A stretch of 54,870 bases of DNA from an uncultured Candidatus Peribacteria bacterium (GCA_964413195.1 CAYPRD010000002.1:1-54870); one strand, 5' to 3'; shown: positions 1 to 54,870, counted from the first letter of the stretch. Translations and numbers: made by a program. The notes: a model not told the origin generated them from the sequence alone.

Positions 1-2
1 CT

Positions 3-635
3 ATGTGACACAAAGTTAGTCCCATCTCATGGCGTATCGGAGTCACCCGTTCTTGGTCATCAACAGGATACTACGATAAGAAAGAATACACAGGAGCTAT
101 TGCTCAGGATGTAGTTATCAGGGATCTTATCCGTACTTTTTTCAAAGGACTTCCAGTCGGACACGTGACTATTGCGCACAGTGATACTGGTCTCAGAGTT
201 GTGATTTACACCTCTCGAACTGCTCTTGTGCTTGGGAAAAATGGAGAAAATATGACAAAATTGCAAAAAAAGCTTCATGCACTTTTTGAAAAAAAAGTTC
301 ATGTTGATGTCAAAGAAATAAAAAATCCTGATGTTCATGCGACACTTATTGGTGATAATATTGCTCGTCAAATCGAAAGACGTCTCCCATACCGTCGTGT
401 TATCAAACAAGCTATCATGAAGGCTATGGAGAAAGGAGCAAAAGGAATCAAGGTCCGTATTTCTGGACGTATCGGAGGTGCGGAAATTGCTCGTCGAGAA
501 GTGTATAAAGAAGGAAATATTCCAACACAGACTATCCGAGCTGCGATTGATTATTCCGTTGAACATGCCCTGACACCCTATGGTATCATCGGTTTAAAGG
601 TCTGGATTTATAAGGGTGACGTGACTAACGACTAA
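3..635 (+). CDS. rpsC: 30S ribosomal protein S3
   Basis: Starts ATG TGA CAC AAA GTT = M-(TGA)-H-K-V, matching the near-universal S3 N-terminus MG(Q/H)KV. The C-terminal part is track ORF 165..635 (GAKGIKVRISGRIGGAEIARRE). TAA stop. Confidence 0.95.
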
Positions 636-648
636 TTTCTCTTTTACT

Positions 649-1077
649 ATGCAACAACCCGCACGAACAAAATATCGAAAAGCCATGAGAGGCACTCAGA
701 AATGAATTGCCACCAGTGGATTTATGCTGACTCATGGATCATTTGGACTGAAGGCAATGACGTCCGGATTCCTTACTGCTCGTGAATTAGAAGCAGCTCG
801 TAAAACAATTGCTCATACACTTCAACGAGGAGGAAAAGTATGGTGCCGAGTTTTTCCTCATAAGCCGTACACAAAGAAAGCTCTTGAAGTCCCAATGGGT
901 TGAGGAAAAGGAGGTGTTGAATATTATCACGCTTCTGTTCCAGCAGGAACGATCTTATTTGAGGTTGATGGGGTAGCTGAATCTCTCGCACGAGAAGCAT
1001 TTACTCTGGCTGGACAGAAACTTTCTGTAGAAACATCTATCATTGATAGTTCATCACTTTTTGCCCTCGCTGCTTAA
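649..1077 (+). CDS. rplP: 50S ribosomal protein L16
   Basis: MQQPARTKYRKAMRGTQK(TGA)IA..FGLKA..TARELEAARK..PMG(TGA)GKGGVEYY. E. coli L16 has GRNRGLA and RMGKGKGNVEYW at these positions. 142 codons, TAA at 1075. Absent from the track because of 2 in-frame TGA. Confidence 0.93.
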
Positions 1078-1088
1078 TCATTTTATTT

Positions 1089-1283
1089 ATGCCAACTAAA
1101 AAAACTCCATCGAAAAAAACATCTTCTGCTCCTCGTGAGCAAAAGAGTGATCTTCGAAGTCTTCGCGCTGAATTTTTCTCTCTCAAGATGAAACATGCTC
1201 TCCGTGAATTAAAAGAAGTTCATAAATTAAGAAATGCTCGCCGCGATATTGCCCGCCATCTTACTAAGCTTCATAAATCATAA
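1089..1283 (+). CDS. rpmC: 50S ribosomal protein L29
   Basis: 64 aa basic helical protein (LRAEFFSLKMKHALRELKEVHKLRNARRDIAR) in the conserved slot between L16 and S17. Confidence 0.85.
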   Translation: MPTKKTPSKKTSSAPREQKSDLRSLRAEFFSLKMKHALRELKEVHKLRNARRDIARHLTKLHKS

Positions 1284-1285
1284 TT

Positions 1286-1516
1286 ATGCCACGCACAAAA
1301 ACTGGTGTTGTCACCTCAAATAAAATGACTGGAACCGTTACCATCAAGGTAACTGAGTATCATCGTCATCCAAAATATAACAAGGACATCCCTGTATCGA
1401 ACAAATTTCATGCTCATACAGATGTTCCTCTCGAGGAAGGTGTCGTTGTTACTATCGAGGAAACAGCACCTCGCTCAAAGACTGTTTGCTGGCGCGTTAT
1501 CCATCCTGCTGCATAA
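1286..1516 (+). CDS. rpsQ: 30S ribosomal protein S17
   Basis: KTGVVTSNKMTGTVTIKV..HPKYNK..FHAHTD..VVVTIEETAPRSKTVCWRV, the S17 OB-fold signature. Conserved gene order. Confidence 0.9.
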   Translation: MPRTKTGVVTSNKMTGTVTIKVTEYHRHPKYNKDIPVSNKFHAHTDVPLEEGVVVTIEETAPRSKTVCWRVIHPAA

Positions 1517-1526
1517 TAATTTTCCT

Positions 1527-1898
1527 ATGATTCAAAAAGAAACTCGACTTATTGTTGCTGATAATACCGGTGCCCGGGAGGTTCTGTGTTTCAATATACC
1601 ACGTTGAACCCGACATCGATATGCACGAGTTGGCGACATCATTGTTTGCTCTGTGAAAGATGCTGACCCAGATGGACAAGTAAAAGCTCACTCTGTCGTA
1701 CGTGCTGTTGTCATTCGTACATCTCGTCCGGTCAAACGTGCTGACGGTTCTACCGTCCGATCTGATGATAATGCGTGTGTGATTGTGAATGAAAAAGGTG
1801 AGCCTCTTGGAAGTCGTGTGTTTGGACCTGTCTTTCGAGAATTGCGTTCTGACAAACGTTTCAAAGCTATTATTAGTAAAGCTCCAGAAGTCCTTTAA
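1527..1898 (+). CDS. rplN: 50S ribosomal protein L14
   Basis: [26 protein letters not shown](TGA)[13 protein letters not shown]. coli L14 has KVLGGSHRRYA, so the TGA at 1605..1607 aligns to Gly. Ends ..KAPEVL. Confidence 0.95.
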
Positions 1899-2824: not shown

Positions 2825-3049
2825 ATGACTCGTAAATCTCTCATCGCCAAATGTCGCCGTCGTCAGCTTCGTGCTGCTCGTCAGCGAGCTAATGGGCACA
2901 AAGTAACCTTCTCAACTCGTATGTATTCACAGTGTATTGTCACTGGAAGACGACGAGGAGTGATTGGCCGTTTTGGTCTTTCTCGTATTGAACTCCGAGA
3001 GCGTATCAATCGTGGTGAAATGTTGGGTGTTCGTAAATCTAGTTGGTAA
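2825..3049 (+). CDS. rpsN: 30S ribosomal protein S14
   Basis: 74 aa. C-terminal [34 protein letters not shown] is the S14 signature. Confidence 0.9.
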
Positions 3050-3059: not shown

Positions 3060-3446
3060 ATGACTACTGATCCTATATCTGATCTTTTTGTTTCTCTGAG
3101 CAATGCACTCATTGCTGGAAAATCACACGTTATTCTTCCTTACTCTGTTCTGAAAGAAAGAGTCTTGGTTATTTTCCGTAAAAATAAGTATATTGTTGAC
3201 TTTGCTGTGGAAGGGGATGTCAAAAAATCTCTTCATATCAAACTTGATGATTCGAAAAACAGAAGAATACCAACATTTCGACGCGTGAGCACTCCTGGAT
3301 CACGAGTCTATGTCGGATCAACTGCTATTAAAAAATCCAGAAGTGGTACCGGTATCTATATTCTTTCTACTCCGAAGTGAGTCATCACTGGCTATGAAGC
3401 TCGAGCACTCAATGTTGGAGGAGAAGTTATCTGAGAAATTTATTAA
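3060..3446 (+). CDS. rpsH: 30S ribosomal protein S8
   Basis: MTTDPISDLFVSLSNA.. (S8-type start) ..GTGIYILSTPK(TGA)VITGYEARALNVGGEVI(TGA)EIY. TAA at 3444. Confidence 0.92.
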
Positions 3447-4359: not shown

Positions 4360-4935
4360 ATGTCGGAAGAGCTCACAACACCTGTACCAGCATCACCAGA
4401 AGCCTCAACTGCTCCTGAATCACCAAGACGTCCTCGCGATAATTGACGAGGAGGTCGAGGAGGTCGAAGAGATGACCGTCGAGGAGGGTCTGGATTTGAG
4501 CCAGTAAAAAAGGAATTTGAAGAGGTACTCCTCGAAGTAGGACGTGTTACCAAAGTTACTCGCGGTGGTCGACAGCTCCGATTTCGTGCTGCGGTTGCCA
4601 TTGGTGATCGTAATGGTCGTGTCGGTTTTGGTCTTGGTAAGGCTCAAGAAGTTTCTGTTGCTGTTGAAAAAGCTGTCAATTCTGCCAAGAAACATTTGGT
4701 GAAAGTTCCACTGAAAAATGGTACTATCCCATATCAGGTTTCAAAGAAATTTAAATCAGTCCGCATCATGATTCATCCAGCGGCTGAAGGAACAGGTATT
4801 ATCGCGGGAGGTTCTGCACGTCGTATTCTGGAACTTGCGGGATGTCAAAATATTCTTTCAAAAAGACATGGTGGTCGTAATATTATTACTACTGCTTATG
4901 CAACCATGGCAGCCCTTAAATCTTATACTCGTTAA
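4360..4935 (+). CDS. rpsE: 30S ribosomal protein S5 with an RGG-rich N-terminal extension
   Basis: ..VTKVTRGGRQLRFRAAVAIGDRNGRVGFGLGKAQEV..IIAGGSARRILELAG. One TGA lies inside the N-terminal RGGRGGRRDDRRGG tract. Confidence 0.93.
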
Positions 4936-5397: not shown

Positions 5398-6747
5398 ATG
5401 ACAAATTGGAAACAACTTTTCCGTTCACAGGGCCTGAAGAAGAAGATAGGTGTTACACTTGCTTTGATCGCTGTGTATAAGCTTCTTTCTGTTATCCCAG
5501 TGCCAGGCGTTTCACCAGCCTCTCTTGAGAGTATGAGAAATGTCTTTTCAGACCAACCAGGGTTAGCGTTTTTTAGTTCACTCATGGGGGGAAGTTTGGA
5601 ACGTTTTTCCATTATTCTCATGGGACTTTCACCGTACATCAATGCATCTATTATTCTTCAGCTTCTCACGGTTGTGGTACCGAAATTGGAGGAAATCAAG
5701 AAAGAATGAGCGCAAGGGCAGAAGAAAATCAACACCTATACTCGTATACTGACAGTTCCTCTGGCATTTATCCAGAGTTATGGGATGATTCTTTTATTAA
5801 ATAGTCTTGTTCAGGGGACTCCAATTGTTGATACAGGAAATTGGACGAATCTCCTTTTCATGATGTCAGTGATTACTGCGGGAACTGTTTTCTTGATGTG
5901 GCTTGGCGAACAAATTAATGAAGCTGGTATCGGGAATGGTATTTCTATGATAATATTTGCTGGAGTCCTGGCTGATGTTCCTTCACGGATCGTTACACAA
6001 CTTGCTCCAGTTACTTGGAATGGTGTGGGAGAGAGTCTTCGACAGTTACTTCCTTTTATCGGTCTTTTGTGTGCAACACTGGCGGTTATATACATTATTA
6101 TCCGGTTTACAGAATGATATAGACGAGTTCCTCTTGTGTATACTCGTACTGGTCGTGATGAGCGTTCGTATTTTCCAATACGCGTGAATCAGGCGGGTAT
6201 GATACCAATCATTTTTGCACTTTCTCTCGTTACATTCCCCTATATTATTGGACAGGCCCTCACTCTCCGAAGTGCCTCATTGCCTCAATTTATGAAGAGT
6301 GGTGCGAGCCTCTTAGTACAGGTATTTGATCCAAATTCTCCTACGTGGTGGTTTGTTGGTATATTTATTGTTCTTGTAGTAGGTTTTTCTTTCTTCTACC
6401 TTTCTATCACTTTTGATACGAAAGAAATTTCAGAAAGTTTACAGAAGCGAGGAGGATATATACCTGGTATTCGCCCTGGACGTCAAACAGCTGATTATCT
6501 CCGTACTGTTTCGAATCATCTTAATTTCTTCGGAGGATTATTTATCGCACTTGTGGCAGCATTTCCTTATATCGCTACATTGGTCAATAACTCTCTCAAA
6601 GCAAACAATATTCCCTATCTGAATGTTGCCCAAATTGATTTTCTTATCTCAGGAGCAGGTCTGATTATCGTTGTTGGTGTTATCTTAGAACTTTTGCGAC
6701 GATTTAAGTCCGAGGCACAATCGTACGATTATAAACGTTTCTTTTAA
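5398..6747 (+). CDS. secY: preprotein translocase subunit SecY
   Basis: Track ORFs 5398..5709, 5785..6117 and 6136..6747 share one frame joined by 2 TGA. GLSPYINASIILQLL. EIKKE(TGA)AQGQKKIN matches SecY KEGExGRRKI. Confidence 0.95.
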
Positions 6748-7234: not shown

Positions 7235-8122
7235 ATGAATATTTTGATTACTGGGGGAGCTGGTTTTATTGGATCACATTTGGTCGATTCCTGTATTGAT
7301 GCGGGCCATACCGTGTGTATAGTTGATAATTTTTCTTCTGGCTTGAGAGAAAATATTGTCCATCATGCCAATAATTCTCGCGTTATTATTTGCGAAGCAG
7401 ATATCACAAACCGTGACAGAATGGATGAAATATTTAGCACATTTCTTCCGGGTGCTGTTTTTCATTTAGCGGCACAAATTAATGTTCGTGAATCAATGAA
7501 AAATCCAGCGAAAGATATTTCCATAAATATTCTTTGAACCATACATATCCTTGATCTCATGAAGAAGTATGAGTGTAATCGTATAGTGTTTTCTTCGACT
7601 GGATGAGCACTCTTTTCTGGTGGATTGCCGCCATATTCAGAAGACCATACTCCTTCCCCAGAAACACCATATGGAATTTCAAAATACACAGATGAAATGC
7701 TTCTTTCTTTTTATCAAAGACAGCATGGAACGCTTGTCACTATTTTGCGTTATGCAAATGTGTATGGACCTCGACAAAATCCGCAGGGAGAAGCAGGGGT
7801 GATTTCTATTTTTCTTGAAAAAATACGTATCCAAGAACGTCCTACAATCTATGGTAACGGAGAACAGACTCGGGATTTTATCCACGTATTTGATGTTGTT
7901 GCTGCAAATATGCATGTACTCAAAAATGATATTTTATGAGTCTTTCATGTCGGTACTGGAGTAGAGACATCGGTAAATCAAGTCTGGAGTCTGTTGGGTA
8001 CGTCGAGTGGTTTAGAACCAATATATGTTCCTGCACTGGGAGAAATTCAGAGAAATTCTCTCAACCCTACCAAGCTTCAGAAAACAGGTTGGGTGATCAG
8101 ATATCCAAATATTACTTTCTAG
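7235..8122 (+). CDS. NAD-dependent sugar epimerase/dehydratase (GalE-like SDR)
   Basis: MNILITGGAGFIGSHL (GxxGxxG) and YGISKYTDE (YxxxK). Three in-frame TGA, including SSTG(TGA)ALF. TAG at 8120. Confidence 0.85.
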
Positions 8123-8123
8123 T

Positions 8124-9188
8124 ATGGCGTATCATCACCTTAATGTTCTTACGATTTTTCCTGATCGTCTGCATCATAATTTTTCCTATCTTCGTTCACG
8201 GAGTTCACATATCATACCAGTTCCCGTTTTAAAAAGTAACGCTTATGGTCATGGCATCAAGACCATTGCACCTCTTTTGTTCGATTATCGTGTACCATTT
8301 GTGTGTGTTGACTCTCTCTATGAGGCATACGAATTGGAAAAGTATGGGTACGATGAAGATATACTTATTATGTGATATGTTGATCCACGTGATGTACCTT
8401 TGAGAAAAAATTTTCATTATGCTGTCTTTGGCGCTGAATATGGGAAAGCTCTCATACGAAAATATTCCAAAATACGACTGCATCTTTTTCTAGATACAGG
8501 CATGCATCGAGAAGGCATACTGGATCTAGACCTCACAGATTTCCAACCTCTTATCAAAAATACTGTTGGACTTATGTCTCATCTCTCAACTCCCGATAAT
8601 ATCTTGGTGAGCGGTGAGCAGATCACGAGTTTTAGTGCGACAAAAAAAATTCTCCAGTCTGCTTGATTTTCATTTCTGTATACACATATTCATGCTTCTG
8701 GAGGACTTCTACAGTCCACTTCACTTCACGATGATATAGCCCATGCAAGAGTGGGATTAGCATATTATGGGTATGGTCATCCAGACCTTCTACCCGCACT
8801 TCGGTGCACGACGCGTATTGTCCAAATAAAAACATTGCAACCTGGTGCGACCATAGGATATGATGGAACATATCATGTGACACGAGTCATGAAAGTTGCT
8901 GTCCTTCCCATTGGATATAATGATGGGCTTGATCGTCGGCTGTCTTCTGGTGGTGAAATGATGATTGGAAATATCGTCTGCCCACTTGTATGAAGAATAT
9001 CGATGAATGTCAGTGTCATTGATATCACCCACGTCCCTCAGGTTACCCCAGGGGATGAAGTGTGTTTTATAAGTGAAATTCCTGGGGCACCAAATGCCCT
9101 CGAAGTGCATGCAACAAAATGTGGCACCATTCCTTACGATATGCTCGTACATATAAACAAAGAAATGCATCGAACTACCAGAGTCTAA
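8124..9188 (+). CDS. alr: alanine racemase
   Basis: VLKSNAYGHG (PLP-Lys motif), LDTGMHREG, PIGYNDGLDRRLS. Four track fragments in one frame joined by 3 TGA. Confidence 0.85.
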
Positions 9189-9684: not shown

Positions 9685-13362
<3,678 letters not shown>

Positions 13363-13383: not shown

Positions 13384-17544
<4,161 letters not shown>

Positions 17545-18038: not shown

Positions 18039-18044
18039 GATCTG

Positions 18045-18050: not shown

Positions 18051-18103
18051 TTTTTAGATGATGCTTTGGAAAGTCTGTTTCTGGGTTCCAAGACTATACT
18101 TTT

Positions 18104-36513: not shown

Positions 36514-37452
36514 TTACAGGAGGTCTGAGATATGTTTTTTATCCTTTGTTGGGAAGAGAACTGAGGCAAGAATAGAGAGCGTAAGACAGCCGACGATGAT
36601 ACTCAGAGAAACGAGGATATCAAAATGATAATACCCAGAAATAAGCATCTTTATACCGACAAATGCTAGAACAGCTGAGAGTCAGTATTTGAGATAGGTA
36701 AAGTTCCCCATCATTCCTGAGAGTGCAAAGTACAGAGAGCGGAGACCGAGAATGGCAAAGATGTTACTCGTATACACGATAAACATGTCATGGGAAATAG
36801 CGAGTACAGCCGGGATAGAATCAAGCGCAAAGACGAGGTCAGTAAATTCAATCATGAGGAGCGCGACGAGCATCGGTGTTGCGTAGTGTTTTGCATTTTG
36901 TATGGTGACAAACTTTCCTCCATCCATCTCTTTTGAGATGGGCATAAATTTTTTGAGAATTCGTACGATAAGTTTTCGTTCAAATTCGATTTCTTCCTTG
37001 CTTTCAAAGAGCATTTTCACCGCTGTCACGATAAGGAAACCTCCAAAAATATATATCACAAAATGAAATGCTTCGAGTATTTCGATACCGAGCTTGATAA
37101 ATATGGCACGCATCACCAGTGCTCCGAGGATTCCCCAGAAGAGGATCTTGTGTTGATAGATTTTTCCTATTTTGAAATAGGCGAAAATCATAATAAAAAT
37201 AAAGAGATTATCGATACTGAGAGATTTTTCCATGACGTATGCTGTCACGAATTCGAGTGCTTTTTGACTGCCCATCCAATGTCATATAAGAGCTGCGAAG
37301 ACACCAGCTAGTCCGATCCATACTGCACTCCAGATAAGAGCCTCTTTAGTTTTTATTTCATGCGCTTTTTTATTAAATACGCCGAGATCGAGCACGAGCA
37401 TGATGATAACAAAGACAAAAAATCACTCCCAGAAATATGTTTGGACATCCAT
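36514..37452 (-). CDS. TerC family integral membrane protein
   Basis: Track ORF 36682..37275 is extended through TGA on both sides. EKSLSIDNLFIFIMIF and LDSIPAVLAISHD are the TerC repeats. TAA at 36514. Confidence 0.88.
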
Positions 37453-42675: not shown

Positions 42676-43587
42676 TTACCCGCCAAACATTCTATAGTTT
42701 TCCAGTATTTGAGTTTGTTGGATTTTATCTGCCGGTTGCTCACAGCTCATATTTTCTATGGTTATCATAATTTCGCGGTGAATAGCACGTATTTCTTCAT
42801 CGGTTGCATCGGTACAAGTGATACACAAATACATACCAGTCATACATCCAAAGGTTCCTACAATCACTGCTTTTCCAGGAAAACGAACACGTAAATTTTG
42901 TTCGAGAGTTTCTGAGAGCCGGTAGCTAAACTTAGGTTCGAGAGTGAGGCATGTATCATTTTCATGAGTCTTTGGCTTGAGGAGGCGTAGATCACAGACC
43001 ACTGCTTTTGTATCGGATGTTGTGTGCTTTTCAACAAGTATTTTATACTGTTTTTGATCAATTTCCGCGAGACTCTCTTGGGCTGCGTGTGGGTCATGAA
43101 ACGTAAACTGTCCACACTGTTGTGCGGTCGCAAATGGTACTCAGAGAAATCCTTCTTTGTCTCCGTGGCCTTCTTCAATACCTCCGATATAACTTAGGGC
43201 TCTTTGTATCGAGCTTGCTACTGCCGCTCGGATACTCTGTGTGTCCAATTCTACAAGAGTAGTTATACGAAAGCCATAACCTGCTTTTGTTTGAAAGGGG
43301 GAAATATCTAGGATCATCCGTGTATCGAGTGCTGGTAAATATTCTGCGAGACTTGATCGGAGACTTCCCGTGTCGCGAGTGTAGGCGAGGAGGTGTTCAT
43401 TGGTATGCATACCAGCATGGAACCGCAGATATTCATCCTCATGGGGGAACGGGAAGAAATCGAGTGTGTAGGTAGTGATCGTGAGAGGAGCATCTGCAGT
43501 AATATGTTTATCAACCGAGAGTGTTCACCCTGTCATGGCTGTGTGGTCTTTTTCGCTGGAATGTGGTCCGCTCGTAAAAGTAATCAT
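42676..43587 (-). CDS. tandem LuxS-like protein (two S-ribosylhomocysteinase-like halves)
   Basis: Half 1 has KDHTAM, HTNEHLLAY (HxxEH), DISPFQTKAGYGF (GCxTG Cys missing) and ATAQQCGQFTFHD. Half 2 has TFGCMTGMYLCI (GCxTG present) but no HxxEH. One TGA. Frame checked. Confidence 0.7.
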
Positions 43588-43593
43588 ATGTGT

Positions 43594-43621
43594 ATTGTAG
43601 ATATTTCTCTGTATGTGTAAA
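43594..43621 (-). promoter_or_regulatory. promoter with -10 placed 6 nt before the ATG (leaderless-type)
   Basis: On the minus strand: TTTACA, 16 nt spacer, TACAAT, then acacat-ATG(43587). Confidence 0.45.
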
Positions 43622-43636
43622 TTTCAATTTTTCACA

Positions 43637-43682
43637 GAAAATAATTTTTCCAGAAAAAACATTTGTCAGAAAAATTATTTTC
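43637..43682. promoter_or_regulatory. pair of inverted 14-nt quasi-palindromes, candidate LexA operators
   Basis: GAAAATAATTTTTC (43637..43650) and GAAAAATTATTTTC (43669..43682) are exact reverse complements. The second one fills the -35/-10 spacer of the lexA promoter. Confidence 0.4.
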
Positions 43683-43690
43683 CTTATAAT
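43663..43690 (+). promoter_or_regulatory. lexA promoter
   Basis: TTGTCA, 16 nt spacer, TATAAT. 27 nt upstream of ATG 43718. Confidence 0.5.
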
Positions 43691-43717
43691 GCTTGTGTTA
43701 TTTTTTCTCTCTTTCCT

Positions 43718-44335
43718 ATGAGACCTCTTGATGGACGTCAACGTGATATCTTGGAATTTTTAACACAGAACCAAGAATATTCACTCACATTAGCAGATAT
43801 CGGTGCTGCTGTTGGCATTGATCATCCACAGAAGGTTCTGGATAAGATCGATCAGCTCCTTCGCATGTGATATATCGCTAAGAGTCCGTTTGGGGGATAT
43901 CAAGTCCTCAAACATTTTGAGGAGACAGACCAGCTCTCGATCCCTTTTTATGGATTTGCACAGTGCGGACATGCGGGACCAACTATCCTAGAGGAATACC
44001 CTAGAAAAAAACTTGAAATCGATAAGGATCTTATTGTCTCTGCTGAGAAAGATACATATTTTGTGACCCGAGCAAAAGGGGATTCGATGGAACCGTTTAT
44101 TCACTCAGGAGATTTTCTGTTAATCAAGGTACAAAAAGGTTTTCATTCCGAAGACCAGGTCATGGTGGTGCACAATGGAGTTCCAAAAATCAAAAAAGTT
44201 CTGCAAGATGGAGAGAAACTCGTGCTTCGTTCTTTTAACCGTGAATTCGGAGATTTTGTTGTGGAGATGGATGATGAAGCCCAGGTAATTGGCGTTGTCA
44301 GGAAACGTTTCCCAAAAGATGCTTTTATTGTCTAA
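43718..44335 (+). CDS. lexA: LexA-type repressor (wHTH plus S24 peptidase)
   Basis: Track ORFs 43613..43870 and 44063..44335 are one frame joined by one TGA. CGHAGPT (Ala-Gly cleavage site), KGDSMEP (catalytic Ser), PKIKKV (Lys). Confidence 0.88.
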
Positions 44336-47300
44336 GTCGGGGTATCTTCTGCGAGTTGAATTTCACTTCACACCTTCTTGATCCTATATTTTCCTCCCTT
44401 TACTCATCGATTTCTTGAGATAGATACCATGTATTGGGCTATACTTGCATCAATAGCTCTGTTAATTTCACGAAGGTTAAAGAAATCAGCACTTAATGGA
44501 GGTTTTGTTCCTTGTCAAAAACCTCTTATTACATTATCTGAGGCATTGTGTGTTCTGCAGACACTTTCACATATTCAGTAAATAAAATCAACAACGTCAT
44601 CATCGATACCTGTTATTTCGATCTCAAAATTTATCATCATTGGTCTCATTCCAATGAGCATTAAATTTTGTCGTACTGCCCTTCTAAATTCTTCTTTTGA
44701 GACTCATAGCATAGGGAGTATGTTAAATCGATTTGCAAATTCTGGCTTTTTAACTCATTTATCATCTTGGAATGCTTCGGCGATACAATCAACTATTTGA
44801 CTTTTATCCATACCGGCATGGAGCTTTTCTGCTCCTGCGTTTGTTGCAGCTATGATAATATATCTTTTTCTTTGGAATGTCTTCCCTACACCAGAGGTCA
44901 TTTTCCCTTCATCTACAAAATTCATAATTGCCATGCGAACTTCAGGGTGCATCTTATCGAGCTCATCTATAAAAACTATCCCTAGTTCATTATCTCTCAT
45001 GAAATTTGTTAAGGTGCCTCATTCATTTGAATTAACGTATCCGGGAGGAGATCATGTAAGGCGTGCTACAGAATGTGCTTCCTTATACATCGAGCCATCA
45101 AGAGTGAGTAGGGGAATATTAAAGTGCTTATGTAATACCTCGGCCATCCATGTCTTTCCGACTCACGTAGGTCATGGGAAGAGAAATGACAATGGTCTGT
45201 CAGGATTAGATCAACCAAGGATATGAGATTCAACTCGAGCACAAAATGTATTGATAACATGGGCTTGTCATACAATATGTTCATTGAGTATTCCTGGTAG
45301 AGCTTGTAAGCTTTTCTGTAATCCTTCCATTTGTTGCGTATTGGTCATGTCAAGAAATGTAGACACGGCAAAACCAAGATCTTCTCAATTAATCTCTCTT
45401 CTTCCACATGCATGACTATTAATAGCACAGGCTTGAATAATGCGAATACTGAGATGAAGTGGATCAGTTCCAGGATTCCGCATTCGAGCGACAATAGAAA
45501 CAATTCTCATAATGATTGTCTCTGGTATTATAACTCACAAAGATGTACTCATTTCATCTCTACAGTTGCATAATCTTGACCGTATTTCTTGATCAGAAAA
45601 AGCTGATATTTGTACCAGATTTTCTACCCCTGGGATGCTTTGAGGTCCAGAAATAACTATTTTTAGTCCTAATCTTCCCACGATTTCGAGAAATTCTCCA
45701 ATTTTTTGTGCGTCAACATATTGAGTTGGTAATCGTAAGACTATGACGGTGTCAGGGTTATAGTTTGCTATTGCAAGAAGGCCTTCATGGATTTTTGTTA
45801 TATCATCTATAATTGTTCCTGGATCTCATCACTGCAGAAGAGATAATAACGCCTTCCATCAGTTTTTTTCTTCTATTCCAATTTCCACTACTGAGTGATT
45901 CTTGAGAGAGTCCGGAACACTACCTGCCATTATCCTTTGCGTTAAACGTCCAAAGAGTCTTTCTGGAATAGCATCATAATCTCATCACCCACTGTTGTAT
46001 CTTGTGGTGTCTACTACTAGTACACTTCATGTTTCCCCGAGTCCTTGGATCATGCTATCCACTTCTGGATCCAGTCAAAGATCTTCCGATTCAGGCTTCA
46101 TAGCTACTGCATGAGTGCTTTTAACACTTGTTGCCGGGGCTTGAAGATTATCCATAAAAATTTGTGGCTCGTAATTCTGTTGGACGAGTTGATATCTTTC
46201 AAAAAGAGATGCGTTTATATGAAATCGTCTTATGCATAGCTGAACAAGAAAAGGAGGTATTTCTCTTATTCAATTTTTACTACATATCTCCAGTATTTGG
46301 ATCATAGCTTCTTCTGTTATTTCTTCAGTTTTTTCTAATATAAAATAGAGTATATCTAAGAGGTTTCTTTTTTCTTTCCAGCGACCATCATGCTCCATTG
46401 TCTCGACTACATGTCGTAAGTTCTGTACGCCAACGACTTTTACCCCTTTAGTACGAAGAATTTCATATATAAATCTATTTTGACTCATACTTTCTCTTTT
46501 CTTGGAATCAATTCACATAGCTTCTTCCATAAATCTTGGTGTTTGGCTTCATAAAAATTGTACTTGCCTCAATCAGTCATAATCATTTTCAAATGCTCAC
46601 TCTCCAAAATATATCATTGGCTGTGCCTCTAGTCTTGTCCCAAAAGACTGATCCATATGATTGCAAGATCGAGTCTTTAATATTTTACATATAGTTGCAA
46701 AAGATTCTTTTGACCCTCTTTCTGCTGAAAATGTATATACGACTTTTCTACTTCCAGAAGATTTTTTACCAGGAATTCATAGACCTCTAATCTGTTCTTC
46801 TAATGTTTTTTTTGTTGTATTGCCTGAATTTCTAAATGGTTTTTTTGCCATAGAGGGGTGGCCAACTCATGTTAATATATATCGTAATGACAAAAAGAGT
46901 AGATCTTCTGCAGAATTGTCGTAACCTTCAAAATCGAGATCTCCTACAATATCCAGAGGTACAAATTCATATTCTTTTTGATGTGCTCAAGAACTAATTT
47001 CTCCATATCTTTCTAATCATAATCGAATCAATTCATGGAGTCATTTCCCAGATACAGATGTTCCATTTCTACAATCTATGGCGACTTTATTTGTGGTTCT
47101 TCTGGAAAATGCGTTATGGATTGTATGGAGGCCAAGCATGAAAGGCCTAATTGCATTGATTGCCGGAATTTGTCTACGAACAGGGAGGGTACCAATATAT
47201 CTACCGACAGCACCTTTTCAATTAAAATCCGGTATTCCTAATAGATCGGAGAGATTGTCATCTTTTCTAAGTATCCGCCTATCGATGACATGTCAGAGCA

Positions 47301-47643
47301 CTGTTCATTTTACTCTTAACAAAAGATTATTTAATTCGTGTCCTGAGATTTCCCCTTCTTTTTTTTCATCTAAAATATTTCTATCCTCTTCACTTTTTCT
47401 ATTCCGTTCGTATCTTGCCATACGTCGTCATAGTACTGTTAGATTAAGCAATGCTCACGTTTTTCTTATTAATCACAGTGATTCACATTCGCGGATGGCA
47501 TCTTCATCTTGTGCATGGGAACTTTCGCCTTTCTTCTCCAGGAGAGCGATTAAAAGATTTTTTATTGTTTCCGCTGTTTTCCCGGCTTCCTGTAACTCAG
47601 AGGTATTTATGGAACTCGTTTGTTGAGATTCTAGGGGGGGCAT
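44332..47643 (-). CDS. 1103-aa ClpA/B-like AAA+ protein: unknown N-terminal region, degenerate D1, intact D2
   Basis: One frame from ATG 47643 to TAG 44332. All 56 sequence lines were split into triplets and no TAA/TAG was found. About 37 in-frame TGA. D2 has GQAHVI..FLFPGPTGVGKT..GSPPGYV..IVFIDELDKMHP..IIIAATNAG. D1-like region has no GKT. Confidence 0.85.
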
Positions 47644-47709: not shown

Positions 47710-48345
47710 TTAATTATTTTTAATAAAATCTAATATAAACGGGAGATGTTCTATGACTCTTTTTCCGGCATGAAGATTCTTCTCAAAATCTTCCTCGGCA
47801 CTAGAGTTGGCATTATCGGATATTATTTTTAGTACCAGCAGTGATACCGCATAATGATGAGCAACTTTTGCCAGAGCGGCACCTTCCATGTCGACCAGTT
47901 GTCCACCACGTACCTGGAGAGATTCTCGCATACTTTCTGTTGTGATAAATTGATCCCCAGTGACTAAAACTCCCTGTTTCAGCTCAGGATGTTCAACCGT
48001 AATAAGGTCAAAAAGAGGGTAGAGTCGGTTTTGTGTTTCGGGCATGTTTTCAAAATATCCGTCATGTTCGATCGTTTTTGTAGCTACTACTACATCACCA
48101 AAACATAAATGTGGACTCAAACTTCCGGCGAGGCCAATATTGATAATAATATCGACCCTATGTTGTTCGAGAATTTTTGTGAGTGTCATGGCAGCAGCTA
48201 CCTTCCCTATGCCGCTGAGAGCGAAGATATAGTCCCCAAATACGACCACACTTCCTACAGAAAGGTTCTCTGTGAATCAGAGAAAATGAGCTATTGGTAC
48301 TATTTCCTCTTCCATGGCCGATATGAATGCTATTTTTTTAGTCAT
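47710..48345 (-). CDS. mtnN: 5'-methylthioadenosine/S-adenosylhomocysteine nucleosidase
   Basis: MTKKIAFISAMEEEI (E. coli KIGIIGAMEEEV), SGIGKVAAA, VDMEGAALA. One TGA upstream of track ORF 47710..48249. Confidence 0.88.
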
Positions 48346-48859
48346 ATTGTAGTACAGAGTACAGTTCAGAAGGTTCTATTTTTTTTCTTCATCATAAAGA
48401 AAGGAGCTCTATGATGACTCCTCCAAAAACAGCACTGGCGCCATTTTCTCGAGCAAGATCAAGTGATGCTTTCATGGTTCATCCAGTTGCGAGAACATCA
48501 TCAGCGACGAGCACCCGGTGTCAGGTTAGTATATCTTTCCTGATGGTGAGAGTAGCGTGACTGTATTCGTAGCTATAGGATTTTTTTGAAACTAACGTTT
48601 CCGGAAGTTTGCCATCTTTTCGGATCATGATAAATGGAAGCTGGTATTTTTCAGCTAACATACTCCCCAGCACAAAACCACGGGCATCGACGCCTGCGAT
48701 GGCATCAATATGTTTATCTTTTATAAATGTGCGGAATCCTTCCAACATACTGGTGCGTTTTTTTGGATCAAAAAGCAGAGGAGATATATCCCGAAAAAGC
48801 ACTCCTGGAATTGGAAAGTCCTGGTAATTTGTCAGCAAATGGTCGAATTCGTTCGTCAC
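48338..48859 (-). CDS. apt: adenine phosphoribosyltransferase
   Basis: GVDARGF and VLVADDVLATG(TGA)T (PRPP motif ..ATGGT). GTG start. TAA at 48338 overlaps the mtnN start. Confidence 0.88.
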
Positions 48860-48899: not shown

Positions 48900-50042
48900 T
48901 TACTGTTGGCTGATAACATCGGAAAGTTGCATGATTGGACTCATGATAGCGTATGCTATGAGACCAACAAAGATAGCCATAGAGACGATAATAACGGGTT
49001 CAATGATTTTATTGATGGTGGTCACGGCATTGTCGACTTCTTCATCATAGAAATCAGCTACTTTCACAATTATTGAGTCTATTTTGGCTGTTTCTTCTCC
49101 TACTTTGATCATCTGAGTAACCATATCGGGGAAGAGGGCATCATTTTCGAGAGATTTTGCTATTGTGACACCGTGCATCACGTCATCTCGTAAAAGCAAA
49201 ATTCTCTGCCGGTATACTTCATTTCCGACGGCTCCTGATATAATTCTCAGTGCTTCTACAATGGAGACTCCACTTCCGAGTAAGCTCGATAATAGGCGTG
49301 AAAAACGAGAAATAATAATTTTTTGTAAGAGAAGTCCGACACCAGGTATTTTGAGGAGGATTTTATCGGACATGTAGAGCCCATTTTCCGTTTTTCTCCA
49401 GGATGCTAAAAGAGATGCAATTCCAACAGGAACAAGGATAAAAAGATACCAAAAACCCTGAACAAATTCACTCATATTCACCAGTATTTGTGTGGCCTTT
49501 GGGAGTCCTCAAAAGTCTTCAAAGATGGTCATCAATTTTGGTACCACCTGCCACATAAGTACAAACACTACTCCCAACATCACTACAATGATCAATGCTG
49601 GATATATGAGGGCTCCAATAAGTTTTTTTGAGAGAGAAGAAAGTTTTTCTATTTGCGCAGCCACTTGTAGCAATGCGACATTTAATTTTCCAGTTTTTTC
49701 TCCTGATTCGATCATAGCGACTTCTGAGTCTGAGAAACTTTTTGGAAACATCTTGAGAGTGGAGGAGAGGTTTTTTCCGGAATGGATGTTTTCTATCATG
49801 GTAGTTTCTATTTTTTTCATGACAGGATTTTTTTGATCATCCTTGAGTACTTTGAGTGCCTGAAGAATGGTCAGGCCAGCGTTGACCATAGTCGCCAAAA
49901 GACGATAAAAAGTTACTTTGTCTTTGAGTTTTACTTTCTGGTTTGTGACGAGAATATCATTGATCAATTCCCACCAAGACTGTTTTTTTTCCTTTGGTCC
50001 TTCGAATTGTTCTGAGAGAATGATGATTTGTTCTTTGGTCAT
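48900..50042 (-). CDS. pilC: type IV pilus / T2SS platform protein (PilC/GspF family)
   Basis: Track ORFs 49509..50132 and 48900..49481 are one frame joined by one TGA. Two T2SSF-like repeats with TM segments. Start taken at MTKEQ, 8 nt after the pilB stop. Confidence 0.88.
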
Positions 50043-50049
50043 ACAAAAA

Positions 50050-51312
50050 TTATACTTCTTGGCGAACCGCTCCGTATACTTCTTCGAGTGTTGTAACTCC
50101 TTGAAGTGCGCGAATAACACCATCTTGCTCAAGCGAAATCATACCATCACGAACCGCAGCGGAAAATATATCTCGAGCTGAGGCTTCTTTGAGTATCATC
50201 TCTTTTATCCCTCCTGTCATCTCCATGACTTCATAGAGTGCTATACGTCCTTCGTAGGCCTGATCATGATGTTCTACTTTAGTGAGATCAGGAACCAAAA
50301 AGCCAGGATCTTTCATCATTTCTTCCGAGAGTCGTTCTCGGATTTCTTCTTTTGGTGTACTGGCGATAACGTTCTTGATGCGCTGTTGTAAATTTATATC
50401 AAGTTCGGAAAAAGGCATTCTTTTTGCCTTGTCCTTATTGATACGTCGTACAAGTCGCTGTGCAATAATAGCATTGATAGTGGCGGGGAGTAGAAATGTT
50501 TTTACCCCTAAATTGATGAGACGAGTGAGAGTTTCAGCAGCAGAATTGGTATGAATTGTGGAGAGCACGAGATGTCCCGTGAGAGATGCTTCTATAGCTA
50601 TATCTGCTGTTTCTTGATCTCGGATTTCCCCCACCATCATGATATCTGGATCTTGACGAAGTGCTGTACGGAGACCCGTAGCAAATGTATATCCTATATC
50701 GGGAAAAACCTGACTCTGATTGAGTCCATCGACGACTATTTCTACTGGATCTTCAAATGTCATGATATTCACTTTTGGTTGATTGAGTTTTTTCATGATC
50801 GCATAGAGGGTGGTAGATTTACCAGACCCAGTTGGACCCGAGTTGAGAATGATACCATTTGGTTGTTCGATTGCCCGGCTAATAATAGCATTATTCTTTC
50901 CTTCGAGTCCGAGCTTTTCCAGGTCAGGAATTTTTTTCTTTTTATCCACGATACGCATCACTATCTTTTCACCGTGCACGGTTGGAAGAGTTGAGAGACG
51001 CAGATCAAATGCCTTGTCGCCGCTTTCATGGGAAATACGTCCATCCTGAGGTTTTCGTGTCTCATCCATTTTCAAGTTTCCAAGAATTTTGTAACGAGCC
51101 ACGATTTGCCCATGATTGAGAATGGGATATTCCAGTATTTCAGTCAGGATACCATCAATACGATATCGCAGACGAACTTTTTCTGAAAAAGGTTCGAGAT
51201 GTATATCTGAAGCATTTATTTCGACAGCATACACAATCATCATATCACAAATCTGTGCTGGATCTTCTCCAGAGAAAATTGATTGCTTTAATGTATCGAG
51301 AGTAGTCGCCAT
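50050..51312 (-). CDS. pilB: type IV pilus / T2SS assembly ATPase (PilB/GspE family)
   Basis: GPTGSGKSTT (Walker A), DPDIMMVGEIRD (Asp box/Walker B), TGHLVLSTIHTN (His box). 420 aa with no TGA. Confidence 0.93.
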   Translation of the reverse strand: MATTLDTLKQSIFSGEDPAQICDMMIVYAVEINASDIHLEPFSEKVRLRYRIDGILTEILEYPILNHGQIVARYKILGNLKMDETRKPQDGRISHESGDKAFDLRLSTLPTVHGEKIVMRIVDKKKKIPDLEKLGLEGKNNAIISRAIEQPNGIILNSGPTGSGKSTTLYAIMKKLNQPKVNIMTFEDPVEIVVDGLNQSQVFPDIGYTFATGLRTALRQDPDIMMVGEIRDQETADIAIEASLTGHLVLSTIHTNSAAETLTRLINLGVKTFLLPATINAIIAQRLVRRINKDKAKRMPFSELDINLQQRIKNVIASTPKEEIRERLSEEMMKDPGFLVPDLTKVEHHDQAYEGRIALYEVMEMTGGIKEMILKEASARDIFSAAVRDGMISLEQDGVIRALQGVTTLEEVYGAVRQEV

Positions 51313-51315: not shown

Positions 51316-52581
51316 TTATATTCGAGATTGGGCTTGGTTAACAATAGTACTGAGGTTTTCGAGCTTCTTTTTGAGCGTTTCCACAGTTGTCAAAATACCA
51401 GTGCGATGCGAGAGTATTTCTATTGGAGTAAAGTTGCTATTAGCGCTTCTCTCTTCAGCAAGGATGCTATCATACGCTGCTCGTGCCTGCATCAACAGAT
51501 TGACGATATCTTGTATTTGTTCCGATTCTCGACATGTATTGCAGGTTTTGAGGAGCGTGTTTCCTTGAGCAATGAGTGATCATTCTCTATTTCCCTTATC
51601 AAGGAACGTGCTAATCATATCATCCAATCGTGCAATATGATCTTTACTGGCTCATCGTATGTAGAACTCCAGAGTTACCGATATGTCCCAGTTTTCTTTT
51701 GTCTGGGTGTGAATACTTTTTCTGTCTAGGCTGTTTTCTTTTGAGGCAGGTTTAATATTGATCGTGTTTACGGTGACGAGCAAATTTTTGAGAGAAGACT
51801 GATTTCCTCCAATGTTTCGTATTGGTTTCGCATCGCGGTGTGTTATCGTCATGTTCTTGTTTTCTCGATTGACATCAATAGCGCCTGTTTTCCCGAGAAA
51901 TTCGAGAAGATAGATTACACTTTCGTTATCAACATTATCAAAACGGAGGGGTATCTCGTATATACCTATTTCTGGTGCTTCTGGTATAAAACGTACATTT
52001 CGTATACCAATTTGCCCTGTGGCATGACCGAGATTATATTGTTCAACAATATTGACTTGTATATATTCAAGGAGTGTTTTCAGGGTAATTTTCCCAGCGA
52101 TGTCGCTGGTAGAATTCATTTCTGCTATACCAGCAAAAACGGGGATCACTTCTCAGATGCTGAGTTGTACAGCTTTTAGAGCTTCTTCTTCTTCTTTTGT
52201 CCAGGATTTTTCTAGCCAAGAAACATAGGAGCCGTCCCCAATTTTCTGGCTAATATTTTTCATGACTGATATGTTTTTTGTTGCATGAATTCCAGTTCCA
52301 ACAAGTTTTGAGAAATTTGGAGAGAGCTGAAGCATGGTTGCCCATCGTTGATTTTTTCGTTCTTCTGGTGTTATTTCCTCCCAGTTTTTTGAAGTTATGA
52401 CTCCTTCTTTTATGAGTATATTGAGTTCGTTCTCGAGTTTTTCTATCTTGGCTACTGTTTCACTTCAGATTTGACTGAAAAAATGACTTACCCACCATCC
52501 TCCTACCAAAGAAAGGATGGCTCAGGCAATCCAGATGGCGCTTGTATTTCTGAGCTCTATGATGGGATTATTGTTTGTCAT
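51316..52581 (-). CDS. hypothetical single-pass membrane protein in the pilus operon
   Basis: 422-codon frame (checked) joining track ORFs 52153..52335 and 51652..52149 through TGA. N-terminal TM AIWIAGAILSLVGGWWVSHFF. TAA is 4 nt before the pilB ATG. Confidence 0.65.
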
Positions 52582-53470
52582 AGGTGAGTTGTTTTATTCG
52601 TTCTGGTTCATATCGAGAAGGAATGTAGGTGACCTGAAGACTGAATTCAGTGGTGAGAAAACCACTCTTCTCATCCAGTTTCATATCGAGAGACTCCGGA
52701 TAAGTGACAAGTATTGATTGTGTTTTTTCCAATTCGGCCATGAAGTCGAGTGATCTTTTGCGTGGCTGGAGAGGCGGTCGAGTTGATACCTGACAACGCA
52801 TAGTTGCATCTAATCCGTCAAAAGTGATCTCATGACAGGAAATTTTGCTCGTAGCATCAGTCATTTTTGCTGCTGTTTCTGACATAATTTTTACTACTAC
52901 TTCGTGATGAATACGATGTTCTGGTGCATTTTTACTGATTATTTCCAGTTCAGGAAGTGTATCGAGAGTGTGGGAGAGGAACTTTTTTGGAACGATTGTT
53001 TCATATGCTCGTCGCAGTTCTATTGTGGCGAAATCTTTTTCTAGCTCGAGCCACTGCGCAATCGTATCGGGAGCAATGCAGTGATTACTTTCGAGAAGGT
53101 CGATATAGGATTGTTTTCATCGTGATATCAGAAAACTTCGAAAAGCAGCATCCTTTCTGAGGGTATCATTGTGTCCGTGGCTCATCCACTGACACCAAAT
53201 ACTATCGTTTGTATTCATTTTTAGACCCATGAGCCAGCTATTTTGCATCTGATTTCTCGTCCAACCATAGAACGCCAAAACCAGCATACATGCCAGACCA
53301 AACCAGGTTACATATCGGGCAATGAGAATCGTTTTCTCCAGGATGTTTCTGAGTTTTTCTGTACTCGGATTCACTTCCTCGGATTCTGGGTTGAGCGCAG
53401 ATAGATCAGTATTCTCGTAGGCACTGACATCGGACCCTTCGGTGATGGGGGTGAAAGAATTTTCTGTCAT
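52568..53470 (-). CDS. hypothetical single-pass membrane protein, first gene of the pilus operon
   Basis: Track ORFs 53117..53470 and 52568..52885 are one frame (one TGA, checked). TM ILIARYVTWFGLACMLVLAFYGW. Overlaps the next gene by 14 nt. Confidence 0.65.
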
Positions 53471-53537
53471 ACCTCTAGGCTATCGTATTTTCTTTTGGGA
53501 ATCAATGATTCTTTCCAAGAGGCTGAGAGAGAAGATA

Positions 53538-53565
53538 TTGACAGATATGTTTAACATAACATAAT
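53538..53565 (+). promoter_or_regulatory. promoter with -10 placed 6 nt before the ATG (leaderless-type)
   Basis: TTGACA, 16 nt spacer, CATAAT, then ctattc-ATG(53572). Confidence 0.5.
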
Positions 53566-53571
53566 CTATTC

Positions 53572-53970
53572 ATGCAATCAGAGACAATCCAATTCTATGC
53601 AACACATCCTCAGCACATGAAAGAAAACCCAGAGGCAACCATTATTCATAGGGAAAATAATAGTGTTTGTGGGGATAATATTACCATCTATATGGATATA
53701 GAGAATGGAAAAGTCCGAACGTGGTCTTTTTCATGAGAGGCATCATTTATTACGATAGCATGTTCGGGCTTGTTTGGTGATCTCATTATGGATCAAAAAA
53801 TTGAGACTATTTTTTCCTGGCATCAGAAAACTCTTATAGAAAAAACCGGTATTACGGTATCCCCACGACGACAGAGGGCCCAAGTGCTCGCGCTTCTTGC
53901 CACGAGAAATGCCCTGCATACGTACCTTCAGGATGGGGAAAGGGATGATTTTAGCGATGTGTTAATGTAG
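53572..53970 (+). CDS. SufU/IscU-like Fe-S scaffold homologue (degenerate Cys set)
   Basis: NNSVCGDNITIYM (NPxCGD-like) and FS(TGA)EASFITIACSG. 132 aa with one TGA. Includes track ORF 53770..53970. Confidence 0.7.
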
Positions 53971-54014
53971 AGCATTCTTTGTCCCACGTATTTTCGTAAA
54001 TCAAATATTTTCTT

Positions 54015-54042
54015 TTGTTTCAGAGGTCGGAAAGAATATACT
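54015..54042 (+). promoter_or_regulatory. promoter with -10 placed 6 nt before the ATG (leaderless-type)
   Basis: TTGTTT, 16 nt spacer, TATACT (54037..54042), then cttttc-ATG(54049). Confidence 0.45.
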
Positions 54043-54048
54043 CTTTTC

Positions 54049-54870
54049 ATGGAACAATCTCGCAAATATGCTTGGTGAAATATAGCCTTCTTTACAGGGT
54101 ATCATGTGGCGCTTTTCGCCCTCACGCCGATATACTTCCTCACTTTTCAGTGGAGCTGGTGAGCATTTGGTCTCGCCTTCTTGCTCTATTTACTCTCGTG
54201 ATTCTCTATAACTGGTGGCTATCATAGACTCTTTTCTCATCGGACCTATGAGGCGTCGAAGGTGATGGAGATTGTCTATCTTTTTCTGGGATTTCTGAGT
54301 ATTGCTGGTTCAGCCGCAGTATGGTCATGTGAGCATAGAATTCATCATGCCAAAACAGATACCCTCGAAGATCCTTATAGTATCAAAAGAGGTTTCTGGT
54401 TCGCTCATATGGGATGGCTCTTTGCATACAAGAATCATTTTGATACTACAAAAATAGCTGATTTATGGTCGAGTAAATGGATTCGCTGGCAGCACCAATA
54501 CTATATTGCCGGTGTTGTTGTTACCAATAGCCTTATATTCATTTGAGCCGGATTACTCACGGATTGGATGTCATCACTGTATTTGGTGATACTGTTACGT
54601 ATATGCTGCTTTCATCACTCTATGTTTTCTATTAATTCTCTTGCCCATACATGGGGGTCAAAAACATATGCGAAAGAGCTCACAGCGGTGGATAATTTTA
54701 TCCTGGCGTTTCTGACTTTTTGAGAAGGATATCACAATTACCACCATGCATTCCCCAACGACTACCGTAACGGAGTTTTATGGTATCATTTTGATCCAAC
54801 TAAATGGCTTATTTGGACTCTTCAAAAGCTTCACCTTGCCAAAAATCTTCGTAGTAAGAATGATTTTCTC
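54049..54870 (+). CDS. acyl-CoA/acyl-lipid delta-9 fatty acid desaturase (3' end outside the window)
   Basis: His boxes GYHRLFSH, EHRIHH and F(TGA)EGYHNYHHAFP. Five in-frame TGA. Frame open to the window end. Confidence 0.88.

Follow-up and report, generated by a model that had tools for sequence, protein, structure and literature searches.

The window analysed here is the whole 54,870-nt stretch CAYPRD010000002.1:1-54870 of assembly GCA_964413195.1, deposited as an uncultured Candidatus Peribacteria bacterium, with a GC content of 41%. It carries a ribosomal protein operon that runs into secY, rplS, an epimerase gene, alr, rpoB and rpoC, followed by, among others, a GC-rich island with RHS genes, argS, mfd, pyrD, pyrC, a gene for a ClpB-D2-like AAA_2 ATPase and apt. 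The subject of this report is the codon TGA, which occurs in frame in most of these genes and is almost certainly read there as glycine, as a first-pass annotation made from the sequence alone had claimed.

Gene content and in-frame TGA codons

When TAA and TAG are taken as the sole stops, the gene map obtained from two Pfam scans of candidate open reading frames (ORFs), a re-reading of the gaps and a third Pfam scan contains 53 genes, 52 of them complete, at a coding density of 94.8%. Within these genes TGA occurs in frame 184 times (10.6 per 1000 codons, or 14.2% of TGA plus GGN) and is found in 45 of the 53, including rpoB (seven), rpoC (five), secY (two) and 10 ribosomal protein genes, while TAA and TAG do not occur in frame at all. 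The TGA positions are uniform along the genes, with no excess at their 3′ ends. Releasing TGA as a stop raises the number of stop-to-stop frames of at least 300 amino acids (aa) from 10 under NCBI table 11 to 33, the longest being 1394, 1249 and 1107 aa; the corresponding numbers are 12 with TAA released in its place and 10 with TAG.

The fragmentation of genes under table 11 had been described in the first-pass annotation, and its counts were largely recovered: secY and mfd fall into three pieces each, and alr into four when started at 8124. The six pieces given for rpoB and the five given for rpoC hold only with a length threshold, since the seven TGAs of rpoB leave seven non-empty pieces, six of them of at least 100 aa, and the five of rpoC leave six pieces, one of just 78 aa; both counts fit a length-thresholded ORF track. 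The splitting is finer still in pyrD (13 pieces), pyrC (12 pieces) and the AAA ATPase gene (36 pieces, each of at most 96 aa), and in a public contig of identical sequence, independent gene calling under table 11 likewise renders SecY as 103 + 110 + 203 aa.

It had also been stated that all genes stop at TAA or TAG, and we find 41 ending in TAA and 11 in TAG, with one gene exiting the window end, a result that is partly true by construction, because a TAA/TAG-only rule defined the genes. The spacing from each stop to the next start, which is 2-22 nt throughout the ribosomal operon, backs these stops.

The operon lies on the + strand and begins with a 5′-partial rpsC (S3, 3..635; Pfam Ribosomal_S3_C/KH_2), whose single TGA (6) falls on an E. 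coli Gly. It continues with rplP (L16, 649..1077), with TGAs at 703 (E. coli G) and 901 (E. coli K), and with rpmC and rpsQ (L29 and S17, 1089..1516), which have none. The single TGAs of rplN (L14, 1527..1898; Pfam 147 bits) at 1605 and of rplE (L5, 2283..2819) at 2523 are both Gly in E. coli, and the two of rplX (L24, 1920..2273), at 1944 and 2223, are both GGA in the related locus L003. After rpsN (S14, 2825..3049; no TGA) come rpsH (S8, 3060..3446), with TGAs at 3378 and 3432, and rplF (L6, 3455..4000), with TGAs at 3629 and 3686, the latter being Gly in E. coli and GGT in three relatives. The TGA of rplR (L18, 4009..4350) at 4279 faces GGC or GGT in relatives and S in E. coli, that of rpsE (S5, 4360..4935) at 4444 lies in a variable N-terminal tail where the relatives have A, D or S, and that of rplO (L15, 4939..5391) at 5095 is Gly in E. 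coli and GGT in three relatives (Pfam matches support rplP, rpmC, rpsQ, rplN, rplX, rplE, rpsN, rplF, rpsE and rplO).

Next on the same strand are secY (5398..6747; TGAs at 5707 and 6115, both E. coli G; Pfam 310 bits), rplS (L19, 6758..7174; no TGA), the exact protein of which is present in two public assemblies, a gene for an NAD-dependent epimerase (7235..8122; TGAs at 7535, 7604 and 7937, with GGN or TGA in relatives) and alr for alanine racemase (8124..9188; TGAs at 8373, 8664 and 8991, the last being G in E. coli and five relatives), the latter three again supported by Pfam. The two large RNA polymerase genes follow, namely rpoB (9685..13362; TGAs at 10069, 11899, 12337, 12340, 12373, 12706 and 13051) and rpoC (13384..17544; TGAs at 13795, 15154, 15391, 16039 and 16555). 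Before the part that served as the RpoB query, RpoB begins with an extension of some 80 residues (9685-9930) that is of low complexity and rich in Lys, Ser and Ala.

The residue at TGA positions

The predicted proteins of relatives have possibly been translated with table 25 already, and therefore DNA and standard-code references were used, which keeps the comparison non-circular. Fifteen regions of E. coli K-12 were fetched, and 27 window proteins were aligned to their E. coli homologues. The 60 TGA columns hold G in 36, D in 5, E in 4 and a gap in 3, with other residues once or twice each and neither W nor C; in ungapped columns only, TGA faces Gly in 36 of 57. The ordinary glycine codons behave alike (GGN to G, 397/571), against a background of 7.9% G. 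An earlier tally, with 36 Gly among 56 TGA columns, gave p = 5 × 10−26 (binomial) against this background and p = 0.21 against the GGN to G rate.

Alignments to solved structures show the TGAs of PyrD, PyrC and S8 on an invariant Gly at each column that is conserved. Five TGAs of PyrD (40866, 40767, 40236, 40146 and 40053) are G in E. coli as well as in the displayed PDB dihydroorotate dehydrogenase alignments, the remaining aligned ones lying in variable columns of the same enzymes, and for PyrC, four of four PDB alignments match the TGA at 41569 with the first G of G-[ST]-DSAPH. In S8, the column of the TGA at 3378 holds G in E. coli as well as in 5/5 PDB chains, and that of the TGA at 3432 holds G, C or A among such chains. 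All four TGA columns of apt are G in E. coli. In the AAA ATPase, the Walker A motif G-P-T-G-V-G-K-T requires the TGAs at 45172 and 45163 to be Gly, and E. coli ClpB and two related loci have G there.

An RpoB scan with one genome per GTDB species yielded 80 loci, in which TAA/TAG-delimited frames were translated and aligned to the window proteins so that the codons could be compared. They comprise 13 close relatives (RpoB ≥80% by BLASTP), 60 mid-distance relatives (55-80%) and seven outgroups without in-frame TGA, labelled Halanaerobiaceae, Saccharibacteria and Lacticaseibacillus. Opposite a window TGA, the close relatives have a Gly codon in 185 of 220 pairs, TGA in 20 and another codon in 15, the mid-distance relatives have a Gly codon in 484 and TGA in 76 of 675 pairs, and the outgroup rpoB and rpoC genes have a Gly codon in 62 of 82. 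The exchange is also seen in reverse, with the relatives' own TGAs facing a window GGN in 61/100 (close) and 354/540 (mid-distance) pairs.

Of the 12 TGA columns in rpoB and rpoC, eight hold Gly in all aligned outgroups, and one more (12337) holds it in E. coli alone. At four rpoB positions (12340, 12373, 12706 and 13051), 7/7 outgroups have Gly and each aligned close relative has either G or TGA, and at 10069 the outgroups have G but E. coli does not; in rpoC, four of the five columns are Gly in all five outgroups. At 16555 in rpoC, 8/10 close and 31/50 mid-distance relatives have TGA as well, altogether 39 independent metagenome-assembled genomes (MAGs). Apart from this codon, the most conserved TGA seen is that of S8 at 3432, four codons ahead of the stop, which is TGA in all three close relatives covering the site (L003, L010 and L012). 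Three loci of 56% identity (L061, L068 and L069) have rpoB and rpoC genes without TGA and may be standard-code relatives.

The individual positions on which the first-pass annotation had built its case were also inspected, and all 12 are TGA in the frame and motif that it gave: nine on the + strand (6, 1605, 4279, 12373, 12706, 13051, 13795, 15154 and 16555) and three, in pyrD (40236), pyrC (41569) and apt (48479), that appear as TCA on the + strand and are thus TGA on the − strand. The pair of paralogous repeats that it had quoted, which lies in the gene for a secreted Cys-rich protein, was likewise found letter for letter, reading AATGATGGATGTAAT at 33081..33095 and TATGATTGATGTAAT at 33465..33479. 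These two Cys-rich repeats align with a score of 85, compared with 25.3 ± 4.8 for shuffles (maximum 53), and in the alignment GGA (33087) stands opposite TGA (33471), with another TGA paired with TGA.

Lineage, decoding and alternative readings

From these comparisons, there is very little doubt that the window comes from the chromosome of an uncultured gracilibacterium that uses NCBI table 25, with UGA read as glycine and UAA and UAG as the sole stops. TGA falls on Gly columns at the GGN rate in E. coli, exchanges with GGN and TGA in relatives and is never matched by Trp. As the first-pass annotation rightly noted, this code has already been described for the group. It is known since 2013 (Campbell et al. 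2013 and Rinke et al. 2013, as cited in PMC8629427 and PMC13293708), the UGA to Gly change in Gracilibacteria and Absconditabacteria has been recovered by automatic screens with Codetta (PMC8629427), and PMC4032931 includes proteomic support for the code in a BD1-5 bacterium. The window resembles the table 25 (SR1 and Gracilibacteria) code in having UGA as Gly, TAA and TAG as sole stops and a gracilibacterial RpoB, and its GC content of 41% is inside the reported range of 0.21-0.53. The code itself is identical, so that the window adds merely one more lineage, whose nearest species representatives have 84-90% RpoB identity.

In Absconditabacteria (SR1) the code is further extended, with CGA and CGG read as Trp, and CGG to Trp is also reported for some Gracilibacteria (Shulgina and Eddy 2021, PMC8629427). 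Every sense codon of the window has its standard residue as the top E. coli match, the sole exception being a trivial V/I tie at ATA. CGA is common (13.4 per 1000 codons) and faces Arg in 66/119 E. coli columns and in 498/577 close-relative pairs, whereas CGG (3.4 per 1000 codons; R in 7/22 E. coli columns) aligns with Arg or Lys, and in the codon tabulation against E. coli and the relatives neither was ever opposite Trp. The window thus has the UGA to Gly change in common with the Absconditabacteria and differs from them in its use of CGA and CGG. With all codons other than TGA keeping their standard meaning, its code is plain table 25 and lacks the further changes of the Absconditabacteria.

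By tblastn, the 13 best RpoB matches (84-90%) are all MAGs, and five of these bear the name Candidatus Gracilibacteria in their deposits, each with its own isolate name. Others among the matches of 84-90% are third-party MAGs labelled ‘uncultured Candidatus Peribacteria bacterium’ (L001, L003-L005, L008-L010 and others); MAGs with this label have in-frame TGA on Gly columns, and the label looks like a coarse taxonomy mapping. The gene order from the ribosomal proteins through secY, L19, epimerase, alr, rpoB and rpoC to DUF1761 is common to L003, L010 and L012, and RpoB identity and gene order together would place the window in the Gracilibacteria (candidate phyla radiation (CPR)/Patescibacteria). 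The layout is unusual in that secY is directly followed by L19, not by adk, map, infA, L36, S13, S11, S4, rpoA and L17, and then by the epimerase, alr and rpoB-rpoC. A gene for L30 is absent between S5 and L15, as fits a CPR genome.

Judging from relatives and the literature, UGA would be decoded by a dedicated tRNA-Gly with anticodon UCA, which would keep G1:C72, C2:G71, G3:C70 and U73 so that glycyl-tRNA synthetase (GlyRS) charges it, while release factor 2 (RF2) would have been lost and RF1 would serve both UAA and UAG. Charging of tRNA(UCA) with glycine by GlyRS is credited to Campbell et al. 2013 in the 2026 review PMC13293708, and two ‘Gracilibacteria’ species without recoding have RF2 and lack tRNA(UCA) (Shulgina and Eddy, PMC8629427). 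A tRNA scan of the 80 related loci gave one UCA tRNA (L045, 2253-2331, − strand), in the Patescibacteria MAG UBA5532, lying immediately upstream of rpoB on the opposite strand. It is 76 nt long, with a 7-nt anticodon loop CUUCAAC, an acceptor stem GCG...CGC, an unusually long D-loop and an encoded CCA; its G1:C72, C2:G71, G3:C70 and U73 satisfy the rule of Shulgina and Eddy for tRNA-Gly(UCA) (PMC8629427). The tRNA scores 45.8 bits against the Rfam tRNA model and is labelled tRNA-SeC by ARAGORN, and its identity rests on the Rfam covariance model and ARAGORN, the minimum-free-energy fold giving no cloverleaf and being no better than those of shuffles (z = −1.3).

A pattern scan of metagenomes for Gly-type UCA tRNAs returned 71 loci, of which 29 are of the 76-nt type and bona fide, with the T-stem pair 50:64 varying among C-G, A-U and U-A and with compensatory changes in the D-stem. 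The other 42 (within L099-L169) were rejected after representative sequences had been read: they are tRNA-Gly(UCC)-like, 70-78 nt long and with a 6-nt loop CUUCAA that is one C short, and are probably rare deletions or homopolymer assembly errors, not UGA decoders. Two of these 42 loci, L152 and L157 (65% GC), also carry rpoB fragments.

Several points weigh against glycine as the meaning of TGA in the window. At about a third of the TGA columns, E. coli has a residue other than Gly (D, E and others), as it also does at about a third of the GGN columns, these being variable positions. The pair counts across relatives (220 and 675 pairs) are non-independent observations, although the pattern opposite TGA is one-sided despite this. 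As for the machinery, no tRNA gene and no Rfam match were found in the 54,870 nt scanned, and the Pfam scans found no release-factor domain in the window, the 55 kb of which correspond to about 5% of the 1.05-Mb chromosome of the relative OZ246415.1. Exact-protein look-ups directed towards a flanking tRNA gene or prfB retrieved only contigs of 0.5-4 kb, belonging to SRR8893623, SRR8893624 and ERZ27258528, and two of the look-ups had no match. The sole relative-linked tRNA(UCA), that of L045, belongs to a genome with 64% RpoB identity, no link to the window could be made for any of the 71 metagenome tRNA loci, and the 29 bona fide ones share no genes with it.

Among the alternatives, the one that survives best, improbable as it is, holds that TGA is ambiguous, meaning glycine mostly and a terminator, selenocysteine or a read-through signal in some genes. 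It draws on the ARAGORN label of the UCA tRNA, on the absence of RF2 not being demonstrable without the genome and on TGA being three times rarer in highly expressed informational genes (described below), a depletion that could reflect residual cost or leakiness. However, no gene needs a TGA stop, as each of the 52 complete genes runs to a TAA or TAG that lies only a few bases from its neighbour downstream, and the uniform distribution of TGA along genes, without a 3′ excess, and the lack of any TGA column against Cys in E. coli speak for a single meaning. The UCA tRNA itself, with its 76 nt and Gly acceptor stem, is not a long-arm tRNA-Sec.

Tryptophan, as in table 4 of the Mycoplasmatales, Entomoplasmatales and several insect endosymbionts, would remove the ORF fragmentation equally well and is the commoner bacterial reassignment of UGA (PMC8629427). 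Organisms with table 4 (Mycoplasma/Spiroplasma and endosymbionts) also resemble the window in the loss of UGA as a stop and in a small reduced genome. The residue is, however, Gly and not Trp in all comparisons made: Trp is opposite a window TGA in 0/60 (E. coli), 0/220 (close), 0/675 (mid-distance) and 0/82 (outgroup) cases, whereas the window TGG faces W in 17/42, 192/235, 430/520 and 37/56, respectively. The earlier tally against E. coli gave 0/56 for TGA against 16/36 for TGG (p = 2 × 10−8), and the relatives' TGAs face a window W in just 1 of 540 pairs. Because of the zero Trp counts, table 4 is ruled out, and we give it a negligible probability.

Artefacts were considered as well. Public contigs that were assembled independently, three of them from the sequencing runs SRR8893623 and SRR8893624 and one from ERZ27258528, match the window at 100% identity over 4070-8093 (4,024 nt), 6656-7192, 20037-21414 and 18491-20211, in-frame TGAs included. 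Because an independent assembly is identical over 4,024 nt and the rpoC TGA at 16555 is common to 39 MAGs, the TGAs are not assembly artefacts. That TGA is a normal stop, with the in-frame TGAs arising from pseudogenisation, sequencing or assembly errors, would agree with the fragments that a table-11 gene caller indeed yields, but has a vanishingly small probability and is excluded because in-frame TGA is exclusive (184 against no TAA or TAG, across 45 genes, among them rpoB, rpoC, secY and 10 that encode ribosomal proteins), falls on Gly columns, recurs at the same positions in independent MAGs and is reproduced in the 100% identical assemblies of two runs.

Remaining genes, the RHS island and uneven TGA usage

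Beyond rpoC, the − strand at 17604..19162 encodes a DUF1761 protein (one TGA, facing GGN in 10 relatives) and a PGA_cap-family protein (eight TGAs). On the far side of the RHS island, 21439..24380 holds genes for an AI-2E transporter (+, one TGA), a hypothetical protein (22603-23277, +, two TGAs) and a sortase (−, five TGAs) as well as a small ORF (23246-23446, −, one TGA), and 24428..28811 holds those for an MFS transporter (−, three TGAs), a CAP-domain protein (−, one TGA), an FAD/NAD (FNR-like) oxidoreductase (+, three TGAs) and two hypothetical proteins (+, six and seven TGAs). RNase J (28808..30784, −, five TGAs; Pfam RNase_J_b_CASP and Lactamase_B) is followed by a divergent pair made of the gene for an M23 peptidase with a signal-like N-terminus (31016..32062, −, three TGAs) and that for the secreted Cys-rich repeat protein mentioned above (32232..33896, +, 11 TGAs, at least two internal repeats). 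Next are argS (33900..35711, −, two TGAs), the genes for a DUF1232 protein and a TerC-family protein (36218..37452, −, three TGAs each) and mfd (37612..39975, +), with TGAs at 37945 and 39388, the latter being E. coli G.

Twelve TGAs each are present in pyrD (39978..41132, −) and in pyrC for dihydroorotase (41149..42537, −), the product of which matches PDB dihydroorotases with E = 4 × 10−26. The following 42676..44335 segment encodes a LuxS-like protein (−, three TGAs) and a LexA-like S24 peptidase (+), whose single TGA faces GGT or GGC in four relatives. The AAA_2 (ClpB-D2-like) ATPase of 1103 aa (44332..47643, −) has 37 TGAs and a longest table-11 fragment of 96 aa. The rest of the window comprises mtnN (one TGA) and apt (GTG start at 48859, four TGAs) at 47710..48859 (−), pilC/T2SSF (one TGA) and the pilB/T2SSE ATPase gene (no TGA) at 48900..51312 (−), two genes for hypothetical proteins (five and one TGAs) at 51316..53470 (−), and genes for a NifU-like protein (one TGA) and a 3′-partial fatty-acid desaturase (five TGAs) at 53572..54870 (+). 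Apart from RHS and pyrC, the products named in this section for genes other than the M23 peptidase and Cys-rich pair were assigned with Pfam.

A greedy selection of the longest ORFs with TGA released had produced antisense ORFs of 228-285 aa across the ribosomal operon (1497-2354, 2426-3112 and 4342-5178, −), as well as spurious ORFs at 30826-31863 and 48727-50046. They were rejected, and Pfam together with re-reading replaced them by L14, L24, L5, S14, S5 and L15, the M23 peptidase and pilC. Naive calling of the longest ORFs under table 25 mis-annotates the ribosomal region. The first-pass annotation had called the code the key to this window that unmasks hidden genes, which is borne out by the M23 peptidase gene: missed by longest-ORF selection, it is seen only with TGA released and the gaps re-read.

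TGA is used unevenly among the genes. It makes up 6.9% of the glycine codons in the ribosomal, RNA polymerase, secY, mfd, argS and RNase J genes compared with 20.8% elsewhere (p = 2 × 10−12), with pooled ribosomal proteins, rpoB, rpoC, secY, mfd and argS at about 4-8% each. The highest shares are those of the AAA_2 ATPase (38%) and of pyrD, pyrC, apt and the hypothetical genes at 27524-28075 and 28080-28811 (27-46%). No significant correlation was found between the TGA share and the GC content at third codon positions (Spearman −0.23, p = 0.16).

The island at 19.17-21.2 kb stands out by a GC content of up to 0.59, compared with 41% for the window. It has three ORFs, all on the − strand (within 19214..21160): an RHS-repeat fragment (19214-19846), a 150-aa ORF (19824-20276) and an RHS core (20279-21160), the assignments being based on RHS_repeat matches and the stops being TAA, TAG and TAA, respectively. 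The RHS core ORF is 5′-truncated and has a unique C-terminal tail, and its frame continues about 35 codons upstream of the ATG. The island has no TGA among its 54 Gly-type codons, for which the probability is 2 × 10−4 to 3 × 10−6, and both of its junctions with TGA-containing flanks are reproduced in the per-run assemblies L170 and L098. A search for homologues found only RHS proteins of 34-47% identity, and no donor was identified. The island is probably an orphan toxin cassette that was acquired horizontally from a standard-code donor. A recent import from such a donor is the simplest reading, albeit unproven; taken jointly with the reading of TGA as a costly codon, a recent standard-code import into a code-25 genome can be proposed only tentatively, and we lean slightly away from it.

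For annotation the code is decisive, since table 11 turns the window into a field of fragments and table 25 gives a normal genome at 95% coding density. The reading of UGA as Gly in Gracilibacteria and SR1 was already known (2013, NCBI table 25), and no new biological principle is involved. The added value is modest and consists of a plain table 25 lineage, a gene-class bias in TGA usage and a TGA-free, probably foreign, predicted toxin cassette. The depletion of TGA in informational genes would mean that the recoded codon is still translationally costly. If the import is true, the island would be an actual example of genes crossing the supposed ‘genetic-code firewall’, a passage that would have been possible only through the chance that its ORFs have TAA or TAG as their stops.

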